Source of the DNA: an uncultured bacterium
GTDB lineage: Bacteria; Patescibacteriota; Minisyncoccia; Phycocordibacterales; CAIZLB01
NCBI GenBank assembly: GCA_903848795.1
Contig: CAINHC010000001.1
Span: 14,915-78,914 of the forward strand
DNA: 64,000 bases
Direction of reading: 5' to 3'
Shown piece after piece: positions 4,434 to 54,748 of this stretch. The notes under the pieces were generated by a model. That model saw only the letters and a program-made list of their open reading frames with translations, did no database searches and was not told the origin of the DNA. Positions within the stretch are counted from its first letter, which is position 1, and the number at the start of each line of letters is the position of its first letter. The translations under genes were made by a program, and so were the position numbers.

Positions 4434-5693
4434 ATGGCAAATAAAAAAGTAGAAATTAGTAAGAAAGTTACAGAAAAAAAAGCGGATGAAAAAGTCGCAA
4501 AAAAAGCTGTGATTAAAGAGCTTGGTAATAAGCCAGCCAGAAAGGAAATGGATGAATTAGAAGATGTAAAAAAAGCTCTCGCTGAAGCACCCGAGGAATC
4601 AATGCCTGAGACTGCAGAAGACGAGGATGATGGAGAAGACGATGAGTCCCCTTCCTCCAAGCCATCTTCAAAATCTTCTTTTGGTTCCAAGAAAAAGGGC
4701 TCGAAAGAAAAGAGTAATGATTCATCGATCAAAGACACTATCGCACAAATCAAAACAAAATTCGGTGACGATGCAATTATGCGTCTTGGAGAAAAACCAA
4801 GAGTTGACGTTAATGCAATTCCAACTGGATCAATCGGACTTGATGCTGCTCTTGGCGTCGGAGGTCTTCCTCGTGGACGTATTATAGAAATATTTGGACC
4901 AGAATCTTCTGGTAAGACAACGCTTTCTCTTCACGTCATTGCGGAAGCGCAGAAGAAAGATGGAATCTGTGCATTTATCGACGCAGAGCACGCAATGGAT
5001 CCAGAATATGCAAAGCGACTTGGTGTTAAGATTGATGAACTTTTAATTTCACAACCAGACACTGGTGAGCAAGCATTGGAGATTGTTGAGAGTTTAGTTA
5101 GATCAGGAAAGCTAGATGTTATTGTCATCGACTCAGTCGCAGCCTTAACTCCAAAGGATGAAATTGAGGGAGATATGGGTGCATCGCACATGGGTAAGCA
5201 AGCAAGATTAATGTCTCAAGCCTTGCGCAAGCTGACTGCAATCGTTGCACGAAGTAAGACTATCGTAATCTTTATCAACCAAATCAGAATGCAAATTGGT
5301 GTTATGTTTGGTAATCCAGAAACAACTCCAGGAGGAAAGGCTCTTAAGTTCTATACTTCAGTTAGATTAGACATCAGAAGAATTGCTCAAATCAAAAAGG
5401 GTGAAGAAATAATGGGAGGACGTGTTCGAGTTAAGGTTGTAAAGAATAAGGTCGCTGCCCCATTTAGACAAACTGAGTTTGATTTAATGTACAACGAAGG
5501 TATTTCAAAGGAGGGAGAGATTATCGCACTAGGCGAGAAGTTGGACATCATCAACAAAAGCGGAACAAGTTATTCTTATGGAGAAGAAAAGCTGGGCCGT
5601 GGATATGATGCAACTCGTCAATTCCTACGAGCTAATACAAAGATTAGTAACGAGATATTAAAGAAGATTAGAGAGCATTTGAAGGAGCTTTAG
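4434..5693 (+). CDS. recA: recombinase RecA with ~95-aa Lys/Glu/Ser-rich N-terminal extension
   Basis: Core motifs [40 protein letters not shown] (Walker A) and VIDSVAAL. RecA-like sequence only begins around [18 protein letters not shown]. No in-frame ATG/GTG/TTG close to the canonical start, so the extension appears translated. Confidence 0.9.
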
Positions 5694-5896
5694 AACCTTC
5701 AAATTTAGCTTGATCTAGTGTGGGGACCAGCGGAACTTGACAGTCAAAAAGTTTTTGGTAAGCTTTAGATACCTTTCAGATTAGTAGCAATATTAATCTT
5801 TTCGATTCTGACCTACTCGTTAGGCAGATGACAATTAATTAAGGACAGTTTGGGGAAACCCCGTCGAAAGTATGCAAATACTTTTATTTTAGCGAT

Positions 5897-5925
5897 TAAA
5901 ACACCATTTGCTTGGTGTTTTTTTC
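5897..5925. terminator. bidirectional rho-independent terminator (between recA and mazF-like gene)
   Basis: aaaACACCAtttgctTGGTGTttttttt hairpin flanked by an A-run and a T-run. Confidence 0.5.
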
Positions 5926-5935
5926 GTTATATATA

Positions 5936-6331
5936 TTATATATATTTGATAAGTTGAATATATCTATCTATTATATTTTTTAGTTCATCTTCAGGTAAGT
6001 AACCCATAATTTCTTTTAATCTATTTATATCAATAGGTCTTATTTGATTTAAAATAACAAATGACTCATTAAACGAAACCTTTATATACCAGTTACCGTC
6101 ATGTTTTTTAGTTGTCAGCGGTGCCGCCAAGAAGAAATTATCAGAAAATACGTTAATTATAACAACAGGTCTAACCAGATTAGGACCAACCCCATTTTGT
6201 TCATACCCCACATTAATACCAAGATAACACCAAAAAATATCACCCAGTCTTATGAAAGTCTTTTGTTGGGGACATTTGTCTTGAGTATTAAAATCGGTCT
6301 TTATTTCTATCTCCATTTTTGTTCCGCCCAT
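5936..6331 (-). CDS. mazF: MazF/PemK (EndoA-type) family endoribonuclease toxin, no cognate antitoxin recognised
   Basis: RLGDIFWCYLGINVGYEQNGV…RPVVIINV…AAPLTTKK…ILNQIRPIDINRLKEIMGYLPEDELKNIIDRYIQLI parallels B. subtilis EndoA/YdcE and E. coli MazF (GD-I/V…G-EQ-G…RP…V, QIRTID-RL). Confidence 0.6.
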   Translation of the reverse strand: MGGTKMEIEIKTDFNTQDKCPQQKTFIRLGDIFWCYLGINVGYEQNGVGPNLVRPVVIINVFSDNFFLAAPLTTKKHDGNWYIKVSFNESFVILNQIRPIDINRLKEIMGYLPEDELKNIIDRYIQLIKYI

Positions 6332-8016: not shown

Positions 8017-8583
8017 CTATTCAGTTGCAATATCAGCCACTTTTTCAGTATCTACAATTTCACTAACGGCATCATCAGGTGTTGCGACAGTTGTAACTGC
8101 ATCTTCTGCAGGAACTTCAGTAGCATCATCTTCTGTTGTTATATCCTCAACTGGCTCATCGGCAATCTTAACGATCTTTGATGATGAATCAGCCTTAATC
8201 TCGGCAACTGCTCCAAGGAAAGTATTTTCCCTAACAGTCTTGATTAATAGAAAACGAAGCATTGGACCAAAGGCCTTTATCTCCTTCTCTAGTGGAACTA
8301 TCTCCTCAGGATTAATTTCAAACTTAACCCATCCGAAATATGATGTTAAATAATTCTTTCTATCCGCCTTTACTGTCTTACTTATTGGATACGCAAGGTT
8401 TTTAAACTTAGGCATTTCTTCTGCGATAAATTGTCCTCCGCGCTTCTCAATAAGTGACTTAAGGTGCGAGAATTGTACAGCGACCTCGTCCTCAACTATT
8501 GTTGAGACAAAGTGAAAACCGAGTTCATAGACTCTGTTTTCAAGCTGTTGGTCCTCTTCTATAAGTTCAACTTTTTTTGCCAT
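8017..8583 (-). CDS. rpsF: 30S ribosomal protein S6 with acidic C-terminal extension
   Basis: YELGFHFVSTI…LAYPISK resembles S6 (YEIVFMV…LAYPINK). Located upstream of ssb-rpsR. Long D/E/T-rich tail. Confidence 0.7.
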   Translation of the reverse strand: MAKKVELIEEDQQLENRVYELGFHFVSTIVEDEVAVQFSHLKSLIEKRGGQFIAEEMPKFKNLAYPISKTVKADRKNYLTSYFGWVKFEINPEEIVPLEKEIKAFGPMLRFLLIKTVRENTFLGAVAEIKADSSSKIVKIADEPVEDITTEDDATEVPAEDAVTTVATPDDAVSEIVDTEKVADIATE

Positions 8584-10952: not shown

Positions 10953-12449
10953 TTAGTCCTTTCTCAAAAACAATGGAGCCTCTGGCATCTTATGATTTGT
11001 AATGCAATCAATAATTAAAGATGAAGTATTTGGCATTACAATAGAAAGTTTATAAGCGCCGATTAATAATTGTTCTTGCAAATGAATCAAATCCTTACGC
11101 GCCAATTCCGGCTCAACTTTAAATTTCTTGAATGGTTGTTCTTCTTGAATAAATCGATCCAGCTTTGTAAAGTTATCAAAAATTTCTTGAACATAGAGAT
11201 CTAATCTAAAGTCCTCGATATGTTTATTTTCTTTTCCATTTAGAATATCAACTGACGACTTAGCACCCTGTATTTGTTCTTCAGTTAGTTTAGACTCATA
11301 AGAAACTGCCATCTTCATAACCCTTGAAACTAGATTTCCGATTCCATTTGCAAGGTGGGCATTATAAACTTCCTTAAACTTATTCATCGCAAAAGGTGAA
11401 TCTTCAAATGGCTGAAGCTCTTTTGTAACAAAGAATCTAAGTGCATCGGCTCCATACTCTTCAACAACTTCAGTTGGATTGACTGTATTTCCCAATGACT
11501 TTGACATCTTTACCCCGCCTTCGCCAGTTATCCAGCCATTTATAATAATCTTATGAGTATTAGGTAGACCAGCCGCCAAAAGCATAGATTGCCAAGTTAC
11601 AGCTTGGAATCTAGTATTATCCTTTCCACAATATTGAACTGGATTTCCATCTCGCCAATATTTGTTAAAATCGCTGTCCGAGCCATTTTCATTCTCCGGC
11701 CAACCTAAAGTAGAGATATAGTTTGTAAGAGCATCAAACCAAACATACATCACATGATCATTATCCTCCGGTACATCAATTCCCCAAGGCATTTTTACCT
11801 TCAGTCTTGAAATACTAAAGTCCTCCAATCCCCTTTTCACAAACTCCTTCATCTCATTTAGTCTTGATTCTGGAATGACAATTTGTGGATTCGATTCAAA
11901 TAGAGTATATAGCTGATCAGCGAGCGCCGATAGTTTAAAGAAATAATTCTCTTCGTCAATGATTTCTATATCACGATTTGGGTGAACTGGGCATTTACCG
12001 TCCACAAGCTCTGAATCAGTTTTATTTTCTTCACATCCAACACAATATTTGGTCTGATAATTCTTTTTATAAATGTACCCTCTTTCTTTAACACTATTCC
12101 ACAGCGTTTGAGAACTAGTTATATGATGCTTATCTGTAGTTCTTATAAAGTGAATATCTGACAAAATATCAAGATCTCCAATAAGATTCTTAAACTTTGA
12201 AGAAGCCTTGTCCAAAAAATCCATTATATCCATCCCCCTTTCTTTTGCCGTCTCATACAATTTGAGACCATGCTCATCTGTTCCAGTATTAAAAAACACA
12301 TCAAAGCCTAACGCTTTTTTGTATCTAGCAATAACATCCGCTCTAATTATTTCCATCGCAAATCCAATATGAGGATCACCATTCACATAAGGAAGGGTTG
12401 TAGTAATATAAAAGCTTTTCTTATCTTGATTTTTTGTATTTTGAGACAT
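10953..12449 (-). CDS. metG: methionyl-tRNA synthetase, minimal form lacking C-terminal tRNA-binding domain
   Basis: Class I motifs P-Y-VNGDPHIGF (HIGH-like) and KMSKSLGN. Zinc-knuckle CVGCEE…CPVH. 498 aa with no Trbp111-like C-terminal extension. Confidence 0.9.
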   Translation of the reverse strand: MSQNTKNQDKKSFYITTTLPYVNGDPHIGFAMEIIRADVIARYKKALGFDVFFNTGTDEHGLKLYETAKERGMDIMDFLDKASSKFKNLIGDLDILSDIHFIRTTDKHHITSSQTLWNSVKERGYIYKKNYQTKYCVGCEENKTDSELVDGKCPVHPNRDIEIIDEENYFFKLSALADQLYTLFESNPQIVIPESRLNEMKEFVKRGLEDFSISRLKVKMPWGIDVPEDNDHVMYVWFDALTNYISTLGWPENENGSDSDFNKYWRDGNPVQYCGKDNTRFQAVTWQSMLLAAGLPNTHKIIINGWITGEGGVKMSKSLGNTVNPTEVVEEYGADALRFFVTKELQPFEDSPFAMNKFKEVYNAHLANGIGNLVSRVMKMAVSYESKLTEEQIQGAKSSVDILNGKENKHIEDFRLDLYVQEIFDNFTKLDRFIQEEQPFKKFKVEPELARKDLIHLQEQLLIGAYKLSIVMPNTSSLIIDCITNHKMPEAPLFLRKD

Positions 12450-41649: not shown

Positions 41650-41928
41650 ATGAGTATTCAAACAACTATACAAATAAGAATTGAAGAAGACCTAAAAGAA
41701 AAAGCATCTGACGTACTTAAGAATATCGGACTGGATCTTTCTTCTGGAATCAAACTCTTTCTAAAAGAGGTTGTTACTAGTGAGTCTGTCCCCTTTATCC
41801 CCTCAACGGCAAAAGGTAAGAAACTTCTGAATTATGAGATGCTCAAACAGGAGATTGCTGAAGCAAAGAAGAAAGGTAAGGGGTTTGCAACAAGTGAAGA
41901 AATGTTGGATGACATCTTAAGGAAGTAA
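41650..41928 (+). CDS. dinJ: DinJ/RelB family antitoxin
   Basis: IQIRIEEDLKEKASDVLKNIGLDLSSGIKLFLKEVVTSESVPF closely parallels E. coli DinJ. Confidence 0.7.
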   Translation: MSIQTTIQIRIEEDLKEKASDVLKNIGLDLSSGIKLFLKEVVTSESVPFIPSTAKGKKLLNYEMLKQEIAEAKKKGKGFATSEEMLDDILRK

Positions 41929-41982
41929 AAATTTATATTTTCTTTGGCATTTCTTCAGGGTACAAATGATATCCTATGCATT

Positions 41983-42261
41983 ATGTATAGAATATTTTAT
42001 ACCAACAATTTTAAGAAACAATTGGCAAAAGTCTTGTCATCTGGAAGATATACGGAATCTGAGGTTAATGATGTTATTAATACATTGGCCATGGGAAAGA
42101 TGCTAGATGTGAGGTTTAAGAATCATAAATTAAGTGGTGAATATACTGGTTTTTATGAATGTCATATTCGCCCAGATCTACTGCTGATTTACGAAAAAGA
42201 CAATATTAACATGATATTAACAGCAATATCTATTGGTAGTCACTCGGAATTATTTGGCTAA
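41983..42261 (+). CDS. yafQ: YafQ/RelE family mRNA interferase toxin
   Basis: …HKLSGEYTGFYECHIRPDLLLIYEKDNINMILTAISIGSHSELFG parallels YafQ (…WKGYRDAHVEPDWILIY…RTGTHAALFG). Start set at MYRIFYTNNFKKQLAK. Confidence 0.7.
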   Translation: MYRIFYTNNFKKQLAKVLSSGRYTESEVNDVINTLAMGKMLDVRFKNHKLSGEYTGFYECHIRPDLLLIYEKDNINMILTAISIGSHSELFG

Positions 42262-42632
42262 AAGCCTCCGTCTAAATACTCCTTAATTCTTGATTTGTCT
42301 TCATTCTCTGATTCACCCTTAAAGTATATTTCGATAAAATCCACCGTATTATTCACAACATGGTAAGCATAAATAATACGAATACCGCTTTGTACACCAA
42401 AACCCTTAAGAGCTTTGCATGCAAATTTCCTAATCTTACAAACCTTCAGTTCATTGGTGCAAAAACTTGGAATTAGTTCGACTGAGTTATTATCTATTTT
42501 TTGCAAATGAAATAACTCGATTGCGTTCTTTTTAACAACTTCAATATCACCCTCAAGCGTTCTAAATTTCTTGAGCAATCTTTTCAAATCTTTATCAAAA
42601 ACTGGTGTATTTTTATAAGTTATCAAGTTCAT
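42258..42632 (-). CDS. RelE/ParE-like toxin (downstream of Panacea-domain antitoxin)
   Basis: …ALKGFGVQSGIRIIYAYHVVNNTVDFIEIYFKGE resembles the RelE/ParE C-terminal beta-sheet consensus. Start set at MNLITYK to limit overlap with the upstream gene to ~20 nt. Confidence 0.5.
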   Translation of the reverse strand: MNLITYKNTPVFDKDLKRLLKKFRTLEGDIEVVKKNAIELFHLQKIDNNSVELIPSFCTNELKVCKIRKFACKALKGFGVQSGIRIIYAYHVVNNTVDFIEIYFKGESENEDKSRIKEYLDGGF

Positions 42633-43401
42633 ATTCTCTAACGGAAGTATTCTTTGTACGATAAAACACTGACTCATAGGATAAAGGTTGACCATATAGA
42701 GCGGTAATCCACGGAACATCCTCATGGGAATAATTACTCAGTTCAACTGCGGATTTATCTGAAAGACGAGAAATAACCTCATCAATATGCTTTATTTCAT
42801 TGGCATTTAATACAGAGATGTCGGACGCTCTTCGTGGTAAATACTTTGTTTGTTCATGTAGAAAGTACTTACTCTTGACTGTCTCAAGCTCCCCCTTGGA
42901 CTCCATCAATTTTACAATTTCCTTAAACTCTACTGGAGTTGGTCCAAAATGGTTCTTAATATATGTTGCTCCAATTAGCTGTTCTTCAAATTTTTCATAA
43001 TAGTCAAAATCAATAAAATAAAGGAGTTTATACAAAACAGTCATTCCCACATTGGACTTACTTCCAACTTTTTCTAGGACATACAGAAGCACCTCTTTAA
43101 ACTTCTTTAGATTTTTTTGCGGTACATCAATACGAATTTCTTGTTTTTCTTTCTTCTTGGATTCATTTGATTCATCAGATATATATACCTTAACATCTGA
43201 AGTTTTTTTACCAGAAATAAGATCTTCTAGAGAAATATTAAAAATCTCAGCGATCTTACTCGCCTCTCCGACGGTTAGCTCTTTTGCCCCTTTTTCGACC
43301 TCTATATAACTTGCTCTTGAAATACCAATTTTTTCAGCAACAAAAGCCTGAGAGACGCCTTGGTTGTTTCTAAGTTCTATTAAAAATTTGCCTTTAATCA
43401 T
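42613..43401 (-). CDS. XRE-family HTH plus Panacea (DUF4065) domain antitoxin
   Basis: N-terminal HTH (LRNNQGVSQAFVAEKIGISRASYIEVEKG). C-terminal LYKLLYFIDFDYYEKFEEQLIGATYIKNHFGPTP matches DUF4065/Panacea. Confidence 0.7.
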   Translation of the reverse strand: MIKGKFLIELRNNQGVSQAFVAEKIGISRASYIEVEKGAKELTVGEASKIAEIFNISLEDLISGKKTSDVKVYISDESNESKKKEKQEIRIDVPQKNLKKFKEVLLYVLEKVGSKSNVGMTVLYKLLYFIDFDYYEKFEEQLIGATYIKNHFGPTPVEFKEIVKLMESKGELETVKSKYFLHEQTKYLPRRASDISVLNANEIKHIDEVISRLSDKSAVELSNYSHEDVPWITALYGQPLSYESVFYRTKNTSVREYELDNL

Positions 43402-48170: not shown

Positions 48171-48722
48171 CTATTTTTTAATAGGCTTAATTAAATTAAA
48201 ATTAAAGGAAAAGCTCAAGTCCTTCTTTCTGGTAAAACTGGTGATTGGTATATTGATACTTGTGAATTCTGGGTTTGAGTTAATCTTTTTTTGTAATTCA
48301 ATTAACTTATCTCTATCTGGAGCCACACCACTTATACTAATCGAAGCGCTATTATCATCAATTAATCCATAAGTGTATCTATCTATATAAGCTCCATCTG
48401 GTAAACTGTTCAAAATTTTATTATATGCTTCCTTGGGAGATAAAATGTTTATTGAATTTTTAAGTGCTTCCAAACTTGAATTTACTAACTTAATTTTATC
48501 TTGAAAATTTTGGTCTCTTAGTGACTGCAAAGACTTCTCTTTGTTTTGATTTTCACTTTTAACTATATTTACCCTACCAGCCGCATATAAATAACTAGGC
48601 AAAAGACACGCCATTCCAACCATTGAGATAAAAAAGACAATCCAACAAACCACTATTACAAGCCTCATTTTGTACTCTTTTATGACCTTTTTCTTTTGTA
48701 ATTCTGGTAGTAGGTGTAACAT
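48171..48722 (-). CDS. pilN: PilN-like type IV pilus assembly protein
   Basis: HLLPELQKK N-terminal motif (cf. INLLP), single TM, coiled-coil periplasmic part. Immediately downstream of pilM. Confidence 0.5.
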   Translation of the reverse strand: MLHLLPELQKKKVIKEYKMRLVIVVCWIVFFISMVGMACLLPSYLYAAGRVNIVKSENQNKEKSLQSLRDQNFQDKIKLVNSSLEALKNSINILSPKEAYNKILNSLPDGAYIDRYTYGLIDDNSASISISGVAPDRDKLIELQKKINSNPEFTSINIPITSFTRKKDLSFSFNFNLIKPIKK

Positions 48723-48726
48723 CTTT

Positions 48727-49848
48727 TTATTGATCTTTTAATAAAGCAAGTCCAAAAGCAGTACCATATCCCAAGGATTCTCGCATGGAAATTTCTGGTA
48801 TCTCATTCTCAAACGATAGAATATTTGTCCAAACATTCGCAACCTCAACTGGAGTCTTTAGTGATATCGCAAGGAAGTCTCTAAACCCGATAACACCAGC
48901 CTCCTTACCAGCTATTAGTATCTTCTTAACTCCAGCAGAGGAATTACCCTTAGTTGGTAATCCTGAAACTATATCAATATTACTTTTAAAATTATTTATA
49001 CTATTCCAGTAAATAAACACCTTTCTGATTTCCTCAACCAACAAATTTGCTGTCGACATTAATGCATTAGAAACGACCTCATTACTAGCATCCCGTGAAA
49101 AACCTTTTTCAAACTTTATTGAAGTAGCAGAATCTTCATCAAGAGATGCTCCTTTCATAATTGCATTGGTAAAATCCTCCGACCCAATAGAAATTGTTGA
49201 TGTAAACTGAACCGCCTCATCATTAACAACAGAAAGAACTGTACTCTTATGGCTAATGTTAACAATGAAATAATTTTCTCTGTCACCTTTTTTTATAATA
49301 GCTCGGGACAATGCCTGGTTTTCAATCAAGAAGGAAATTGGAAACATTCCGCAAGATTCGAATAGCTCAATATATTCATTTATAACAACGGTGGGCACTA
49401 CAGACACAGCAAGAAATTGCATGCCTGTACTCTCATTTTTCTTTATTCTATGATAATCAAAAATTGCATCATCTATCGATATCGGAACATTCTCTTCGAG
49501 ATGCATCTCAATTCTGTTTCTGATTTCTTCCTTTGTTCCATCAACCACCTCAATAGTAAACAAATAGGCCTTTTCTTCTGGAATCGATATTTCTACAAAC
49601 TTTAATTTATATTTCTTCTGAATCTTTTTTAGAATATCTATAAGGTTTTTATTAGATAACAGAGATTCGTTTGGTAACATTGGTGAATCCAGCTTCTCCT
49701 CGGCGCAACACCTTAATTTTAGACCCTTAGCAGTTCTAATAATTTCAGCCATATGAACAGCAGAAGAGCTGATATCAAAACCAGCGTGGGACATTTCTAG
49801 ATAGTGAGATGTTGGAAAATATTTATTTAGTGTATCTAGGTACGACAT
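48727..49848 (-). CDS. pilM: type IV pilus assembly protein PilM (actin-like ATPase fold)
   Basis: 373 aa. Actin/FtsA-like fold signatures (…SVVPTVVINEYIELFESCGMFPISFLIENQALSRA…GYGTAFGLALL). Confidence 0.65.
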   Translation of the reverse strand: MSYLDTLNKYFPTSHYLEMSHAGFDISSSAVHMAEIIRTAKGLKLRCCAEEKLDSPMLPNESLLSNKNLIDILKKIQKKYKLKFVEISIPEEKAYLFTIEVVDGTKEEIRNRIEMHLEENVPISIDDAIFDYHRIKKNESTGMQFLAVSVVPTVVINEYIELFESCGMFPISFLIENQALSRAIIKKGDRENYFIVNISHKSTVLSVVNDEAVQFTSTISIGSEDFTNAIMKGASLDEDSATSIKFEKGFSRDASNEVVSNALMSTANLLVEEIRKVFIYWNSINNFKSNIDIVSGLPTKGNSSAGVKKILIAGKEAGVIGFRDFLAISLKTPVEVANVWTNILSFENEIPEISMRESLGYGTAFGLALLKDQ

Positions 49849-49927
49849 GTACTACTATTCTATCATAACAAAAAGATTTTGTTATAATTATTTTGCAACT
49901 TTTTTAAGCTTTTATTTTTAGTTATGA

Positions 49928-50809
49928 CTATTTCAACTTTGTACCATTTGGCAAACTCTTGCTTGGATTAAGTAGGGCAATATTTTTACCGTCACCTCCA
50001 GCCAATATCATAGCTTGGCTTTCTTGTCCCATCATCATTCTAGGGGCCAAGTTTGTAACAAAGGGAAACTGCTTTCCAACCAGATCTACAGCATCAACAT
50101 GTCTTGCTATTCCAGAAAGAACCTGTCGTGGCCTTTCTTCACCAAAATCAACTGAAAGTTTTAGTAATTTATCAGAACCTTCTATGTTTTCAACTACTAA
50201 AATTTGGCCCATTTTTATCTCTACCTTTAGAAAATCGTCAATCGATATATAATCTGATGTTTTACTGACCCCAGCCTCCGCCTTTGGATTTTCCAATGTT
50301 TCCGTTTGGGTATTATTATCAATATTGTTATCCTTTATTTCTGTATCTTGTGATTGTGTATTCATATTTTTAAATTTTATTCTATCCAAATAACTTTGTA
50401 AAATGATCGCCGCTGCCGATGCGTCTACATTCTTGTTTTCACCCTGGAACTTAGTAGCCTGAACCGTGGAGTATAATTCTGGTTCATAAACAACATTAAA
50501 CCCAGCCTCTTCCAGTTTTGACCCAAAAAATCTAGCATCTACCATGATTGTATTATCAACCCCCTTGAGATCTACTGAGTGTCCAATTATAGCGGTTTGA
50601 GCCTGCCGGTCTTTTAGAATATCAACTACCTCCTGTACAGCCTGCTTTATTCTTTCCTCTCTCTTGTCTATGTCGTGACCAAAACCAGCGACAACAGTCA
50701 ATGGGAAGGCCAACAGTCCAAGCACGTCTCCGACCGCTACGCCAATCCTCTTTGATCCAAAATCTAGGCCAATTATTCTTTTATTTATTTCGGAAACGTC
50801 TTTATTCAT
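49928..50809 (-). CDS. ruvX: RuvX/YqgF pre-16S rRNA nuclease fused to a C-terminal Trbp111/CsaA-type tRNA-binding domain
   Basis: N-terminal IGLDFGSKRIGVAVGD…DASAAAIILQSYLD (YqgF). C-terminal IDDFLKVEIKMGQILVVENIEGSDKLLKLSVDFGEE-RQVLSGIARHV…LVGKQFPFVTNLAPRMMMGQESQAMILAG (PF01588 tRNA_bind pattern). Confidence 0.8.
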   Translation of the reverse strand: MNKDVSEINKRIIGLDFGSKRIGVAVGDVLGLLAFPLTVVAGFGHDIDKREERIKQAVQEVVDILKDRQAQTAIIGHSVDLKGVDNTIMVDARFFGSKLEEAGFNVVYEPELYSTVQATKFQGENKNVDASAAAIILQSYLDRIKFKNMNTQSQDTEIKDNNIDNNTQTETLENPKAEAGVSKTSDYISIDDFLKVEIKMGQILVVENIEGSDKLLKLSVDFGEERPRQVLSGIARHVDAVDLVGKQFPFVTNLAPRMMMGQESQAMILAGGDGKNIALLNPSKSLPNGTKLK

Positions 50810-50953
50810 ATATTATTGGTAGTCTATCAAAAAGAATGATTTGTGGCTAATTATGTCGATAAAATACTGACAAAAAGCCGTGAATGTTGACCGAGCTACC
50901 ATCTTGCCCTCGTCTATTGTTTTTTTCTTTATTTTTGCTAATATGACAAGCAC

Positions 50954-51040
50954 GGAGGAGTGGCAGAGTGGTCTAATGCACTTGTCTTGAAAACAAGAGT
51001 CTCTTTACGGGGACCGTGAGTTCGAATCTCACCTCCTCCG
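50954..51040 (+). tRNA. tRNA-Ser (TGA), long variable arm
   Basis: Acceptor GGAGGAG/CTCCTCC + G, anticodon arm CTTGT-CTTGAAA-ACAAG, T-arm GTGAG-TTCGAAT-CTCAC. Confidence 0.8.
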
Positions 51041-51105
51041 CCGATAATTAAAAAAGCGCCCCCCCCAGGGTCGTTTTTTTATTTACAAGCCATGTGTTAT
51101 TTTAT

Positions 51106-51810
51106 CTACCAAGGCATTCTCTCCTTTCCAAACCAAAAGCCTCCTGTCTCCTTATCTGAAACAATAACACCATAAATACCCTCCGCCGCTTCTTCTGCTG
51201 TTATATCAGCCTCAGACCCACCAAGATCGGTCTTAACCCACCCAGGATGAACTGACGAAACTGTTATATTAGACTTCTTTAATCTCTGCGCCAGAGTACA
51301 TGTATACATATTTAGTCCAGCTTTTGATATTTTATAGCTTGGATAATGATATGGATAATGACTTTCAGCCCTACCTGCTTTTTCTAGCGATCCCGCGGAT
51401 GAAGAAATATTTATAATTTGTCCGCCAGAGTTTATCTGAGAAATTAACCTTTCTGTAAAGTCGATTGGGCCTATTAGATTAACTTCTAATGTTTTTCTAA
51501 GTTTCTCGACAATTACACTAGTATCATCTTCATCAAAAAGCGCGCCTGCGTTGTTTATTAAAATATCAATTTTCGTACCAGCGAAAATTATTTCATTCAC
51601 GCATTGCTCTATACTTTCTGGAGAAGATAAATCAAGCTTAAATATTTTAGTTTTAGGCACCTCATCTCTAGAGCCGACGTCGTTGTCTGTAGCCACCTTA
51701 TCTACGCCAATATAAACCGTCCCTAAAACATTAAAACCTTCTTTTATAAATTTAAATTGGAGCGCCTCCCCTATTCCCCTCGAAACTCCTGTAATTAGCA
51801 CTGTTTTCAT
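51106..51810 (-). CDS. short-chain dehydrogenase/reductase (SDR) family oxidoreductase
   Basis: TGVSRGIGEAL cofactor motif, NNAG, catalytic YKISKAGLN (YxxxK). Confidence 0.85.
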   Translation of the reverse strand: MKTVLITGVSRGIGEALQFKFIKEGFNVLGTVYIGVDKVATDNDVGSRDEVPKTKIFKLDLSSPESIEQCVNEIIFAGTKIDILINNAGALFDEDDTSVIVEKLRKTLEVNLIGPIDFTERLISQINSGGQIINISSSAGSLEKAGRAESHYPYHYPSYKISKAGLNMYTCTLAQRLKKSNITVSSVHPGWVKTDLGGSEADITAEEAAEGIYGVIVSDKETGGFWFGKERMPW

Positions 51811-53778: not shown

Positions 53779-54039
53779 TTAGCCTAATTTCTTAACCATT
53801 TTACTTAGTCTTGACTTCTTTCTATCTGCTGCACCTTTCTTGATAAGACCGTTCTTTGCAGCCTTGTCTAATTCCTTATAAGCCTTAGATAGAGCTGTTT
53901 GAGCAGTAGTTTTGTCTCCCGCAGTAAGAGTCTTAACACCCTTAACGGCGATGTCTACTTTCTTCTTACGACGAACATTAACAATTCTCTTTCTCTCTGA
54001 GCCTCTAAGTGCTTTTTTTGCTGATTGGGTTATTGGCAT
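53779..54039 (-). CDS. rpsT: 30S ribosomal protein S20
   Basis: MPITQSAKKALRGSERKRIVNVRRK…AKNGLIKKGAADRKKSRLSKMVKKL matches S20. Start at internal Met of the ORF-track call. Confidence 0.8.
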   Translation of the reverse strand: MPITQSAKKALRGSERKRIVNVRRKKKVDIAVKGVKTLTAGDKTTAQTALSKAYKELDKAAKNGLIKKGAADRKKSRLSKMVKKLG

Positions 54040-54130: not shown

Positions 54131-54748
54131 ATGATTGGATATCTAAAAGGAGACATTATTTATAGGGATTTGAAATTTTTGATAATAAATACTGGGGGTG
54201 ACCAGAACGGCGTTGGCTACAAGGTGTATACAACGCCAGACTTTATTGCAGAGACAGAGAATTTAGACCACGTCGAAATGTGGATTCACACCGTAGTTAA
54301 AGACGACGCCATAGATTTATATGGGTTCAAAAATAAGGGGTCCTTGGATTTCTTCGATCTTCTTCTCAGTGTTTCTGGAATAGGGCCAAAGTCCGCCCTC
54401 AACATTCTCGGCTTGGCAAATACTCAAAACCTAAGGCAGGCAATTGTTTCTCAAGATATTTCATACTTAACGAACGTTTCTGGAATCAGTAAAAAGATAG
54501 CAGAAAAGATAGTTTTGGAATTGAAAGGAAAAGTTCTTGGCGGCGATAATGATGAATCTGATGGAGTTGGAATATTATCCAACAATAAACAGAGTAGGGG
54601 TATTGAAGTTGAGGCACTTGAAGCTCTCAAGGCGTTGGGGTATACTCAGCGAGAAGCAAGGGAGGCGCTAGAAAATGTTCCAAAGGATATTAAAGATTCA
54701 AAGGATATAAGCGCAATATTGAAGGCAACACTAAAGGTATTGAGTTAA
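54131..54748 (+). CDS. ruvA: Holliday junction branch-migration protein RuvA
   Basis: MIGYLKGDIIY… OB domain, HhH motifs (LLSVSGIGPKSALNIL), C-terminal domain III (ALKALGYTQREAREAL). Confidence 0.85.
   Translation: MIGYLKGDIIYRDLKFLIINTGGDQNGVGYKVYTTPDFIAETENLDHVEMWIHTVVKDDAIDLYGFKNKGSLDFFDLLLSVSGIGPKSALNILGLANTQNLRQAIVSQDISYLTNVSGISKKIAEKIVLELKGKVLGGDNDESDGVGILSNNKQSRGIEVEALEALKALGYTQREAREALENVPKDIKDSKDISAILKATLKVLS

Follow-up and report, generated by a model that had tools for sequence, protein, structure and literature searches.

What is a RuvX/YqgF-type nuclease doing in the same polypeptide as a Trbp111-type tRNA-binding domain? The question is raised by a gene of an uncultured Patescibacteriota bacterium on a 64,000-nucleotide stretch of DNA (contig CAINHC010000001.1 of assembly GCA_903848795.1, positions 14,915 to 78,914), referred to here at its full length as the window. 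We found that this gene, ruvX-trbp, is a genuine single gene and the minority state of a widespread pair of neighbouring genes, ruvX and trbp. The probable explanation, in our judgement, is a tolerated, lineage-specific fusion of these neighbours into one chain of two autonomous modules. The gene and its parts, with residues (aa) numbered along the protein, are as follows:

49928..50809, minus strand: the whole fused gene ruvX-trbp, 293 amino acids plus stop codon, a single open reading frame (ORF) matched by both Pfam domains
50384..50779, minus strand: RuvX/YqgF RNase-H-fold nuclease domain, aa 11-142, identified by PF03652, TIGR00250 and Foldseek, with the predicted catalytic carboxylates D16, E111 and D129
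50261..50356, minus strand: disordered polar linker, aa 152-183, about 32 residues with a per-residue model confidence (pLDDT) below 50
49931..50251, minus strand: tRNA_bind OB fold of the type found in Trbp111 and at the C-terminus of methionyl-tRNA synthetase (MetRS), aa 187-293, identified by PF01588, phmmer and Foldseek, together with the N- and C-terminal segments through which Trbp111 dimerises

The reading frame is unbroken from its ATG start, and its product carries, in order, a complete RuvX/YqgF domain, the linker and a complete OB fold. A preliminary description, made from the letters of the window, had proposed this architecture, and the Pfam and NCBIfam scan, AlphaFold2 and Foldseek all bore it out. 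The AlphaFold2 model (43 homologues in the input) had a pLDDT above 90 in both domains and below 50 for residues 152-183, with a predicted template-modelling score (pTM) of 0.52 for the whole chain. The pTM together with the disordered linker suggests that no fixed arrangement exists between the domains, which in this model behave as two beads on a flexible string.

Two separate genes may appear joined through an error of sequencing, assembly or gene calling, and the halves are indeed separate ORFs in most related species. Such an error is, however, extremely improbable here. The same 293-residue protein was observed, identical throughout, in independent assemblies and samples (NCBI, ENA and Logan; at least 20 contigs), which excludes an assembly artefact and also the frameshift between two genes that the preliminary description had considered. 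The same architecture was observed in 20 clusters spanning 60-100% identity, in which the indels of the linker preserve the reading frame. No second copy of RuvX or tRNA_bind was found in the window by tblastn. A promoter and terminator scan of positions 49600-51200 was uninformative: it gave 8 promoter-like sites where 4.4 would be expected, and no terminator.

RuvX/YqgF proteins are essential in many bacteria and have been called Holliday-junction resolvases, 16S rRNA 5'-end RNases and antitermination factors, and their role is debated. They take part in pre-16S 5' maturation in E. coli, and in D. radiodurans the protein is a Mn-dependent 5'-3' exo- and endoRNase. The N-terminal half of the fused protein was matched at aa 11-142 by PF03652, over positions 2-133 of the 134 in the model (E 8.6e-23; 81.6 bits, cutoff 29.2), and by TIGR00250 (48.7 bits, cutoff 43.25). 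Foldseek against the PDB placed it in the RNase-H-like fold of D. radiodurans YqgF (7w89, template-modelling score TMt 0.88), E. coli YqgF (1nu0, 0.79; also 1nmn), B. subtilis YrrK (1vhx, 0.74) and M. tuberculosis RuvX (7ess, 0.72). Nine positions (G14, D16, G18, K20, G23, E109, P110, E111 and D129) were invariant or nearly so in the 43 fused homologues, with the three carboxylates D16, E111 and D129 invariant. The aligned counterparts of D16 and E111 in E. coli YqgF (EcYqgF) are D9 and E96. In the AlphaFold2 model D16 lies on beta1, E111 at the end of beta5 and D129 on alpha3, as in the known family members, and by this predicted fold position they correspond to D22, E106 and D122 of D. radiodurans YqgF (DrYqgF), in which the substitutions D22A, E106A and D122A impair or abolish RNase activity (PMC9601230). 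The 'DER' motif of YqgF reads 'EPE' in the fused protein, where the Glu is kept, the preceding Asp is replaced by Pro, and an extra Glu stands two residues upstream. Unlike known YqgF proteins, which consist of a single domain of about 130-160 residues, the fused protein bears a C-terminal RNA-end-binding domain.

Free-standing Trbp111 proteins have been proposed to be tRNA chaperones, CCA-end protectors and possibly deacylases, and their role is also debated. A Trbp-like OB fold deacylates Ala-tRNA in eukaryotic MCP1 and Arc1p (PMC12021450). A tRNA_bind domain had been expected at aa 190-293 of the fused protein, and PF01588 matched aa 198-291 over all 96 positions of the model, well above its cutoff (E 6.1e-23; 81.2 bits, cutoff 27). 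The C-terminal OB module is present as described, but it begins near aa 187 and not at aa 190, taking in a segment of the dimer interface. The closest resemblance is to Trbp111 of A. aeolicus (1pyb, 8vtz and 8vu0, deposited as 'methionyl-tRNA synthetase beta subunit'). The phmmer comparison of the OB half with 1pyb/8vtz gave an E of 8e-26, and Foldseek gave 42-44% identity with a TMt of 0.87-0.89 for 8vtz/1pyb, alongside 0.93 for 1mkh and 0.91 for 2cwp.

In Trbp111-tRNA co-crystals reported in 2024, the fold grips the single-stranded 3'-terminal CA of tRNA and not the tRNA body; a pocket of K33, R75, S82 and M85 holds the terminal C75-A76, and tRNA binding depends on these residues (PMC11286949). 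They align to K214, R257, S264 and M267 of the fused protein, such that four of five pocket residues are kept, and these four are conserved in the fused homologues. The fifth, F78, which stacks on C75 and is listed among the residues important in mutagenesis (PMC11286949), is M260 here. The fused protein differs from A. aeolicus Trbp111 in this substitution, in a Met at the position of I77, and in having a nuclease tied covalently to its OB fold by a disordered linker. The Trbp111 dimer is ultra-stable and is held by the N- and C-terminal segments (PMC11286949); the fused protein has the corresponding stretches, aa 187-201 and 272-293, which are conserved and which the single-chain prediction models with confidence. 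With the key residues of each conserved in the 43 fused proteins, both halves look active, and from these correspondences we infer putative dimerisation, CCA-end binding and nuclease activity for the fused protein.

The OB half also resembles the tRNA_bind domain at the C-terminus of full-length MetRS from bacteria and archaea (1mkh, 5h34, 9shc; NF008900, NF001100, TIGR00399). Its best NCBIfam matches were the MetRS C-terminal models, and the alignment of residues 146-293 to NF008900 positions 507-648 includes the polar region before the OB fold. TIGR00399 ('metG_C_term') scored 115.7 bits, about one bit under the cutoff of 116.65 for this 'MetRS beta chain' hidden Markov model (HMM). Unlike full-length MetRS, the fused protein has no synthetase core, and as a whole it scored 120 bits against a MetRS cutoff of 598. 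The CsaA export chaperone of B. subtilis (2nzh) shares the OB fold, at 30-34% identity and a TMt of about 0.9, but a CsaA identity was rejected on profile scores (NF007496, 57.2 against a cutoff of 171; TIGR02222, 42.9 against 119.65). The top Foldseek matches, labelled 'MITF bHLHLZ' (7d8s, 7d8r), are engineered MITF-Trbp111 constructs and reflect no biological similarity.

How common is the joined form? We scanned one genome per GTDB species and re-analysed the best 80 loci with our own domain HMMs. These relatives are Paceibacteria-type Patescibacteria, carried in databases under the names Kaiser-, Taylor-, Adler-, Nomura-, Lloyd-, Staskawicz- and Zambryskiibacteria, Paceibacterota and Minisyncoccia, and many of the metagenome-assembled genomes are labelled 'uncultured Candidatus Saccharibacteria', a placement that is unverified. 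A fused ORF was observed in only 4 other species of the 80. In 54 species a distinct tRNA_bind gene (~110-165 aa), starting at an ATG of its own, came immediately after ruvX, while ruvX and trbp were close by but not adjacent in 6, RuvX alone was observed at the locus in 10, and the OB gene alone in 6.

The second gene of the 54 split pairs was in the same frame as ruvX in 16, in the +1 frame in 18 and in the +2 frame in 20, and 9 split loci had an ATGA overlap of stop and start. The stops were a mixture of TAA, TAG and TGA, and the second ORF had its own ATG except at the truncated locus L010. Given these starts, even frames and mixed stops, we take the split pairs as ordinary separate genes, and stop-codon readthrough, recoding and an alternative genetic code were rejected as explanations of the split state. 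At L010 an in-frame TAG (670-674) lies between the RuvX and OB domains with no start codon before the latter; the contig is short and the second ORF truncated, and the candidates are a fused gene that recently acquired a nonsense mutation, an error in sequencing, or readthrough.

Outside this set, a search of 5.8 billion proteins returned about 81 clusters (at 90% identity) with both Pfam domains, down to 36% identity to the window protein. Where named, they belong to Patescibacteria or Paceibacterota, and they are annotated 'RuvX' or 'MetRS subunit beta'. An exhaustive profile search of 1.84 billion representatives at 50% identity ranked 17 full-length fused clusters at the top and, below them, hundreds of stand-alone RuvX (about 130 aa) and tRNA_bind proteins (about 110-150 aa). 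We found no paper on a fusion of YqgF with a tRNA-binding domain, on RuvX in Patescibacteria, on PF03652 with PF01588, or on the ruvX-trbp pair, in line with the earlier remark that the fusion is not known as a standard architecture. A survey of ribosome biogenesis in the Candidate Phyla Radiation reports yqgF as patchily conserved and does not mention the fusion (PMC12641178). Both domains are textbook families, the combination sits in databases under one-domain names, and what is new is the architecture.

The closest relatives of the window's C-terminal domain are stand-alone proteins of about 165 residues (50-58% identity) with a polar N-terminal tail of 40-60 residues, and the linker of the window protein matches this tail. 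In one of these relatives, L087, ruvX (156 aa) and trbp (164 aa) are separated by 73 nt, and pilM comes next. This packed pair, and the tail that matches the linker, make loss of the ruvX stop codon the simplest origin of the fused gene. The split pairs of other Paceibacteria (L087, L012, L032) have orthologous domains in the same order and in the same ruvX-trbp-(dedA)-pilMNO neighbourhood, but encode two chains where the window encodes one; a stop codon ends the first, the second starts at its own ATG, and stop and start often overlap as ATGA.

A neighbour-joining tree of the concatenated domains (146 sequences) contained 10 maximal all-fused clades interleaved with split forms, and Fitch parsimony gave a split root and at least 10 changes. 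The two genes appear, from these sequences, to have fused repeatedly, approximately ten times. Domain identity within clades went down to 58% in the largest fused clade (39 members) and to 67% in the clade of the window (20 members). The linker ranged from 0 to about 45 residues among the fused homologues and varied in length and sequence between fused clades, differences which fit independent fusion events.

In several of the free-standing trbp genes the OB fold is interrupted by extra residues, placed past the DFGEE strand. The insertion is about 14 residues long in P0087 and P0090-P0093 (P0087, P0090, P0091 and P0093 being those named) and about 25-50 residues long at loci L016, L026, L044, L054, L064 and L076, where the HMM match is split in two.

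The synthetase of the window is also relevant to the OB module:

10953..12449, minus strand: metG, a MetRS core of 498 amino acids without a C-terminal tRNA_bind domain, matched by NF008900 at positions 2-477 of 648 and with no PF01588 match

The preliminary description had remarked on the missing domain, and these matches confirm it. All 120 of the nearest MetRS relatives (55-95% identity, 477-506 aa) were likewise without PF01588, and a MetRS without this domain is therefore not peculiar to the genome of the window. It is a class-wide state, like that of A. aeolicus, where a MetRS without the domain coexists with Trbp111, and was not created by the fusion. The OB module may act in trans for MetRS or for all tRNAs. 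A link to metG by gene neighbourhood was rejected, as no MetRS match was found within 6 kb of the ruvX-trbp pair in any of the 80 loci.

We favour a tolerated fusion of neighbouring genes over targeting of the nuclease to a substrate. The starting point would be a tightly packed pair, ruvX followed by a free-standing Trbp111/'MetRS beta chain'-type OB gene, across the Paceibacteria-type Patescibacteria. The lineage of the window would have lost the ruvX stop codon, turning the polar tail of the OB protein into a disordered linker of roughly 32-40 residues. One module would be a YqgF/RuvX RNase-H-fold nuclease with three catalytic carboxylates, RNA-processing by homology, and the other would capture the single-stranded 3'-terminal CA of mature tRNAs in a preformed pocket, with its terminal segments probably making the fused protein a homodimer. 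For a clade whose MetRS has no such domain, the OB module would be a general tRNA 3'-end-binding cofactor. The tether would be tolerated, giving at most a modest rise in local RNA concentration, and it seems dispensable, since the two proteins are separate in most relatives. We infer the stop-loss origin, the dimerisation, the CCA binding, the RNase activity and the independence of the modules, and the product is probably a dimeric, two-module protein of RNA metabolism.

Several observations weigh against this explanation. The fusion recurs and persists, as in the largest fused clade with its domain identity down to 58%, and the overlapping start and stop codons of split pairs suggest translational coupling. 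Under the Rosetta-stone principle, a recurrent and retained fusion is expected of proteins that interact or share a pathway. Both modules handle RNA, and no substrate-binding site has been identified in YqgF (PMC9601230). Given this recurrence, retention, suggested coupling and common involvement with RNA, the fusion can be called only putatively neutral. The count of fusions is approximate, because the neighbour-joining tree carries no support values.

The same observations would fit a functional coupling, in which the OB fold recruits substrate for RuvX through the single-stranded 3'-terminal CA of a tRNA or of another CA-ended RNA, and the flexibly tethered nuclease is placed next to the paired 5' end. 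RuvX would then have precursors of tRNA or rRNA as its substrates, or a part in RNA quality control, and species with split genes would form a non-covalent complex. Targeting of the nuclease to CCA-ended RNA is possible, and we consider this coupling a serious but unlikely alternative. The preliminary description had suggested that the fusion could tether the nuclease to structured RNA; that idea would need revision, as the Trbp111 fold grips a single-stranded 3' end, and the unrelated fusion partners described below weaken any functional link drawn from the fusion alone. The two genes are adjacent, fused forms included, in 58 of the 80 species, often with an ATGA overlap; the at least 10 apparently independent fusions always have RuvX at the N-terminus and the OB fold at the C-terminus; and the catalytic and CA-pocket residues are both conserved in the fused proteins, all of which speaks for this coupling. 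The affinity of Trbp111 for the 3' CA of tRNA is micromolar, a value suited to passing the RNA on to a catalytic domain, and Trbp-type OB folds fused to aminoacyl-tRNA synthetases boost catalysis by raising the local tRNA concentration (PMC11286949). Against these points, the OB gene has no RuvX nearby in 6 of the 80 species and RuvX has no adjacent OB gene in 10, the linker is disordered and unconstrained in length (0-45 aa), and the C75-stacking F78 of Trbp111 is a Met in the fused protein.

The neighbourhood of the gene also counts against such a coupling. Directly downstream lie two pil genes:

48727-49848, minus strand: pilM (PF11104, PilM_2), directly downstream of the fused gene
48171-48722, minus strand: pilN-like gene, next to pilM and part of the ruvX-(trbp)-(dedA)-pilMNO block

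The ruvX-(trbp)-(dedA)-pilM-pilN-pilO block is syntenic across the class and gives context rather than function. The unrelated pilM was observed downstream of ruvX on the same strand in 61 of 75 loci, such that adjacency of trbp is no better conserved than that of pilM, and RuvX-only loci keep dedA or pilM downstream and merely have no trbp between. Three separate clusters at 50% identity (P0287, P0290, P0342) join RuvX to the membrane protein DedA (RuvX+VTT/DedA). The Trbp-type OB fold, always C-terminal, was also observed in related Patescibacteria on desulfoferrodoxin (P0103), pterin-4a-carbinolamine dehydratase (PCD; P0279) and the GreA N-terminal coiled coil (GreA_N; P0112), and the desulfoferrodoxin fusion (L085, 5001-5723, P0103) has no ruvX nearby. 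The OB fold behaves as a promiscuous C-terminal add-on and may be a dimerisation module. At L087 PilM and PilN, encoded by separate genes in the window, are fused into a protein of 561 residues (4549-6234) directly downstream of the split ruvX-trbp pair. Since the clade fuses unrelated neighbours in this way (RuvX-DedA, PilM-PilN, and desulfoferrodoxin, PCD or GreA_N with tRNA_bind), fusion alone is weak evidence that the halves cooperate. At loci L028, L046, L061, L071 and L073, dedA takes the place of trbp after ruvX; a RuvX-VTT/DedA protein would be a membrane-anchored RuvX.

A further use of the OB fold would be as a dimerisation device, in which its homodimer pairs two RuvX domains into a Holliday-junction resolvase with two active sites, working with the nearby RuvA (and RuvB). 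Two genes bear on this possibility, which we regard as quite improbable:

54131-54748, plus strand: ruvA (RuvA_N, HHH_5, RuvA_C), about 3.3 kb from ruvX
53779-54039, minus strand: rpsT (S20), near ruvA and about 3.3 kb from ruvX

Besides the ultra-stable Trbp111 dimer, whose two terminal segments are both present and confidently modelled here, the requirement of MtRuvX and HpDprB for dimerisation in Holliday-junction resolution agrees with this arrangement, while DrYqgF and EcYqgF are RNases that act as monomers and show no activity on Holliday junctions (PMC9601230). Among related loci, 22 have ruvA near ruvX, and in 22-24 of about 75 both ruvA and rpsT stand upstream of ruvX at a distance of about 3.3-3.5 kb. 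Other partners of the OB fold, desulfoferrodoxin and PCD, are oligomeric enzymes, which would likewise suit a dimerising role. However, RuvX is unfused in most relatives, so dimerisation driven by fusion is not generally required, and a disordered linker of more than 30 residues gives no defined geometry for paired cleavage. No RuvB and no RuvC/RecU was found among the 10 size-matched candidate ORFs of the window, a 64-kb stretch that cannot show absence from the genome.

A more ambitious proposal, which we hold to be doubtful, would make the ruvX-trbp pair and its covalent form a dedicated RNA-end machine of the Patescibacteria, in which the OB dimer holds the 3'-CCA of tRNA or other CA-ended RNA and offers the neighbouring 5' end to the 5'-3' exo/endonuclease RuvX. 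If so, RuvX would have a defined substrate in the cell, whether it matures the 5' ends of tRNA or rRNA or monitors mature tRNAs, and free-standing Trbp111 proteins would have a catalytic partner.

Two neighbouring genes fused about ten times give a natural and directly testable hypothesis, that RuvX works on CCA-ended RNA, and the fused form offers a compact protein for testing it. The fusion is in this respect a concrete handle on the debated function of RuvX/YqgF and a mild surprise to the specialist, and it illustrates how, in Patescibacteria with their reduced genomes, the MetRS C-terminal module persists as a mobile domain that fuses promiscuously. If instead the tolerated fusion we favour is neutral, the locus is a caution, since these compact genomes often fuse neighbours that are unrelated (with DedA, PilN or desulfoferrodoxin as partner), which would make Rosetta-stone inference unreliable there. 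The fused gene is an undescribed but modest variant and not a new kind of system.

The remaining features observed in the window were as follows, with the coordinates of the toxin-antitoxin cluster taken from the Pfam annotation of the identical locus L001:

50954-51042, plus strand: tRNA-Ser(TGA), divergent, 145 nt upstream of the start of the fused gene, in the 296-nt gap before a short-chain dehydrogenase/reductase (SDR) gene
41650-43401, mixed strands: toxin-antitoxin cluster
about 41650-41928, plus strand: RelB, member of this cluster
about 41944-42261, plus strand: YafQ-family toxin, member of this cluster
42613-43401, minus strand: HTH + SocA_Panacea protein, member of this cluster
8017-8583, minus strand: ribosomal protein S6 ORF, 188 amino acids
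7471-7977: ssb, after the S6 gene

The tRNA-Ser(TGA) gene does not encode its 3' CCA (...CTCCTCCG CCGA), and a C-run followed by a T-run lies after it. In the S6 protein the Pfam S6 domain covers only aa 19-115, with a C-terminal extension of about 70 residues.

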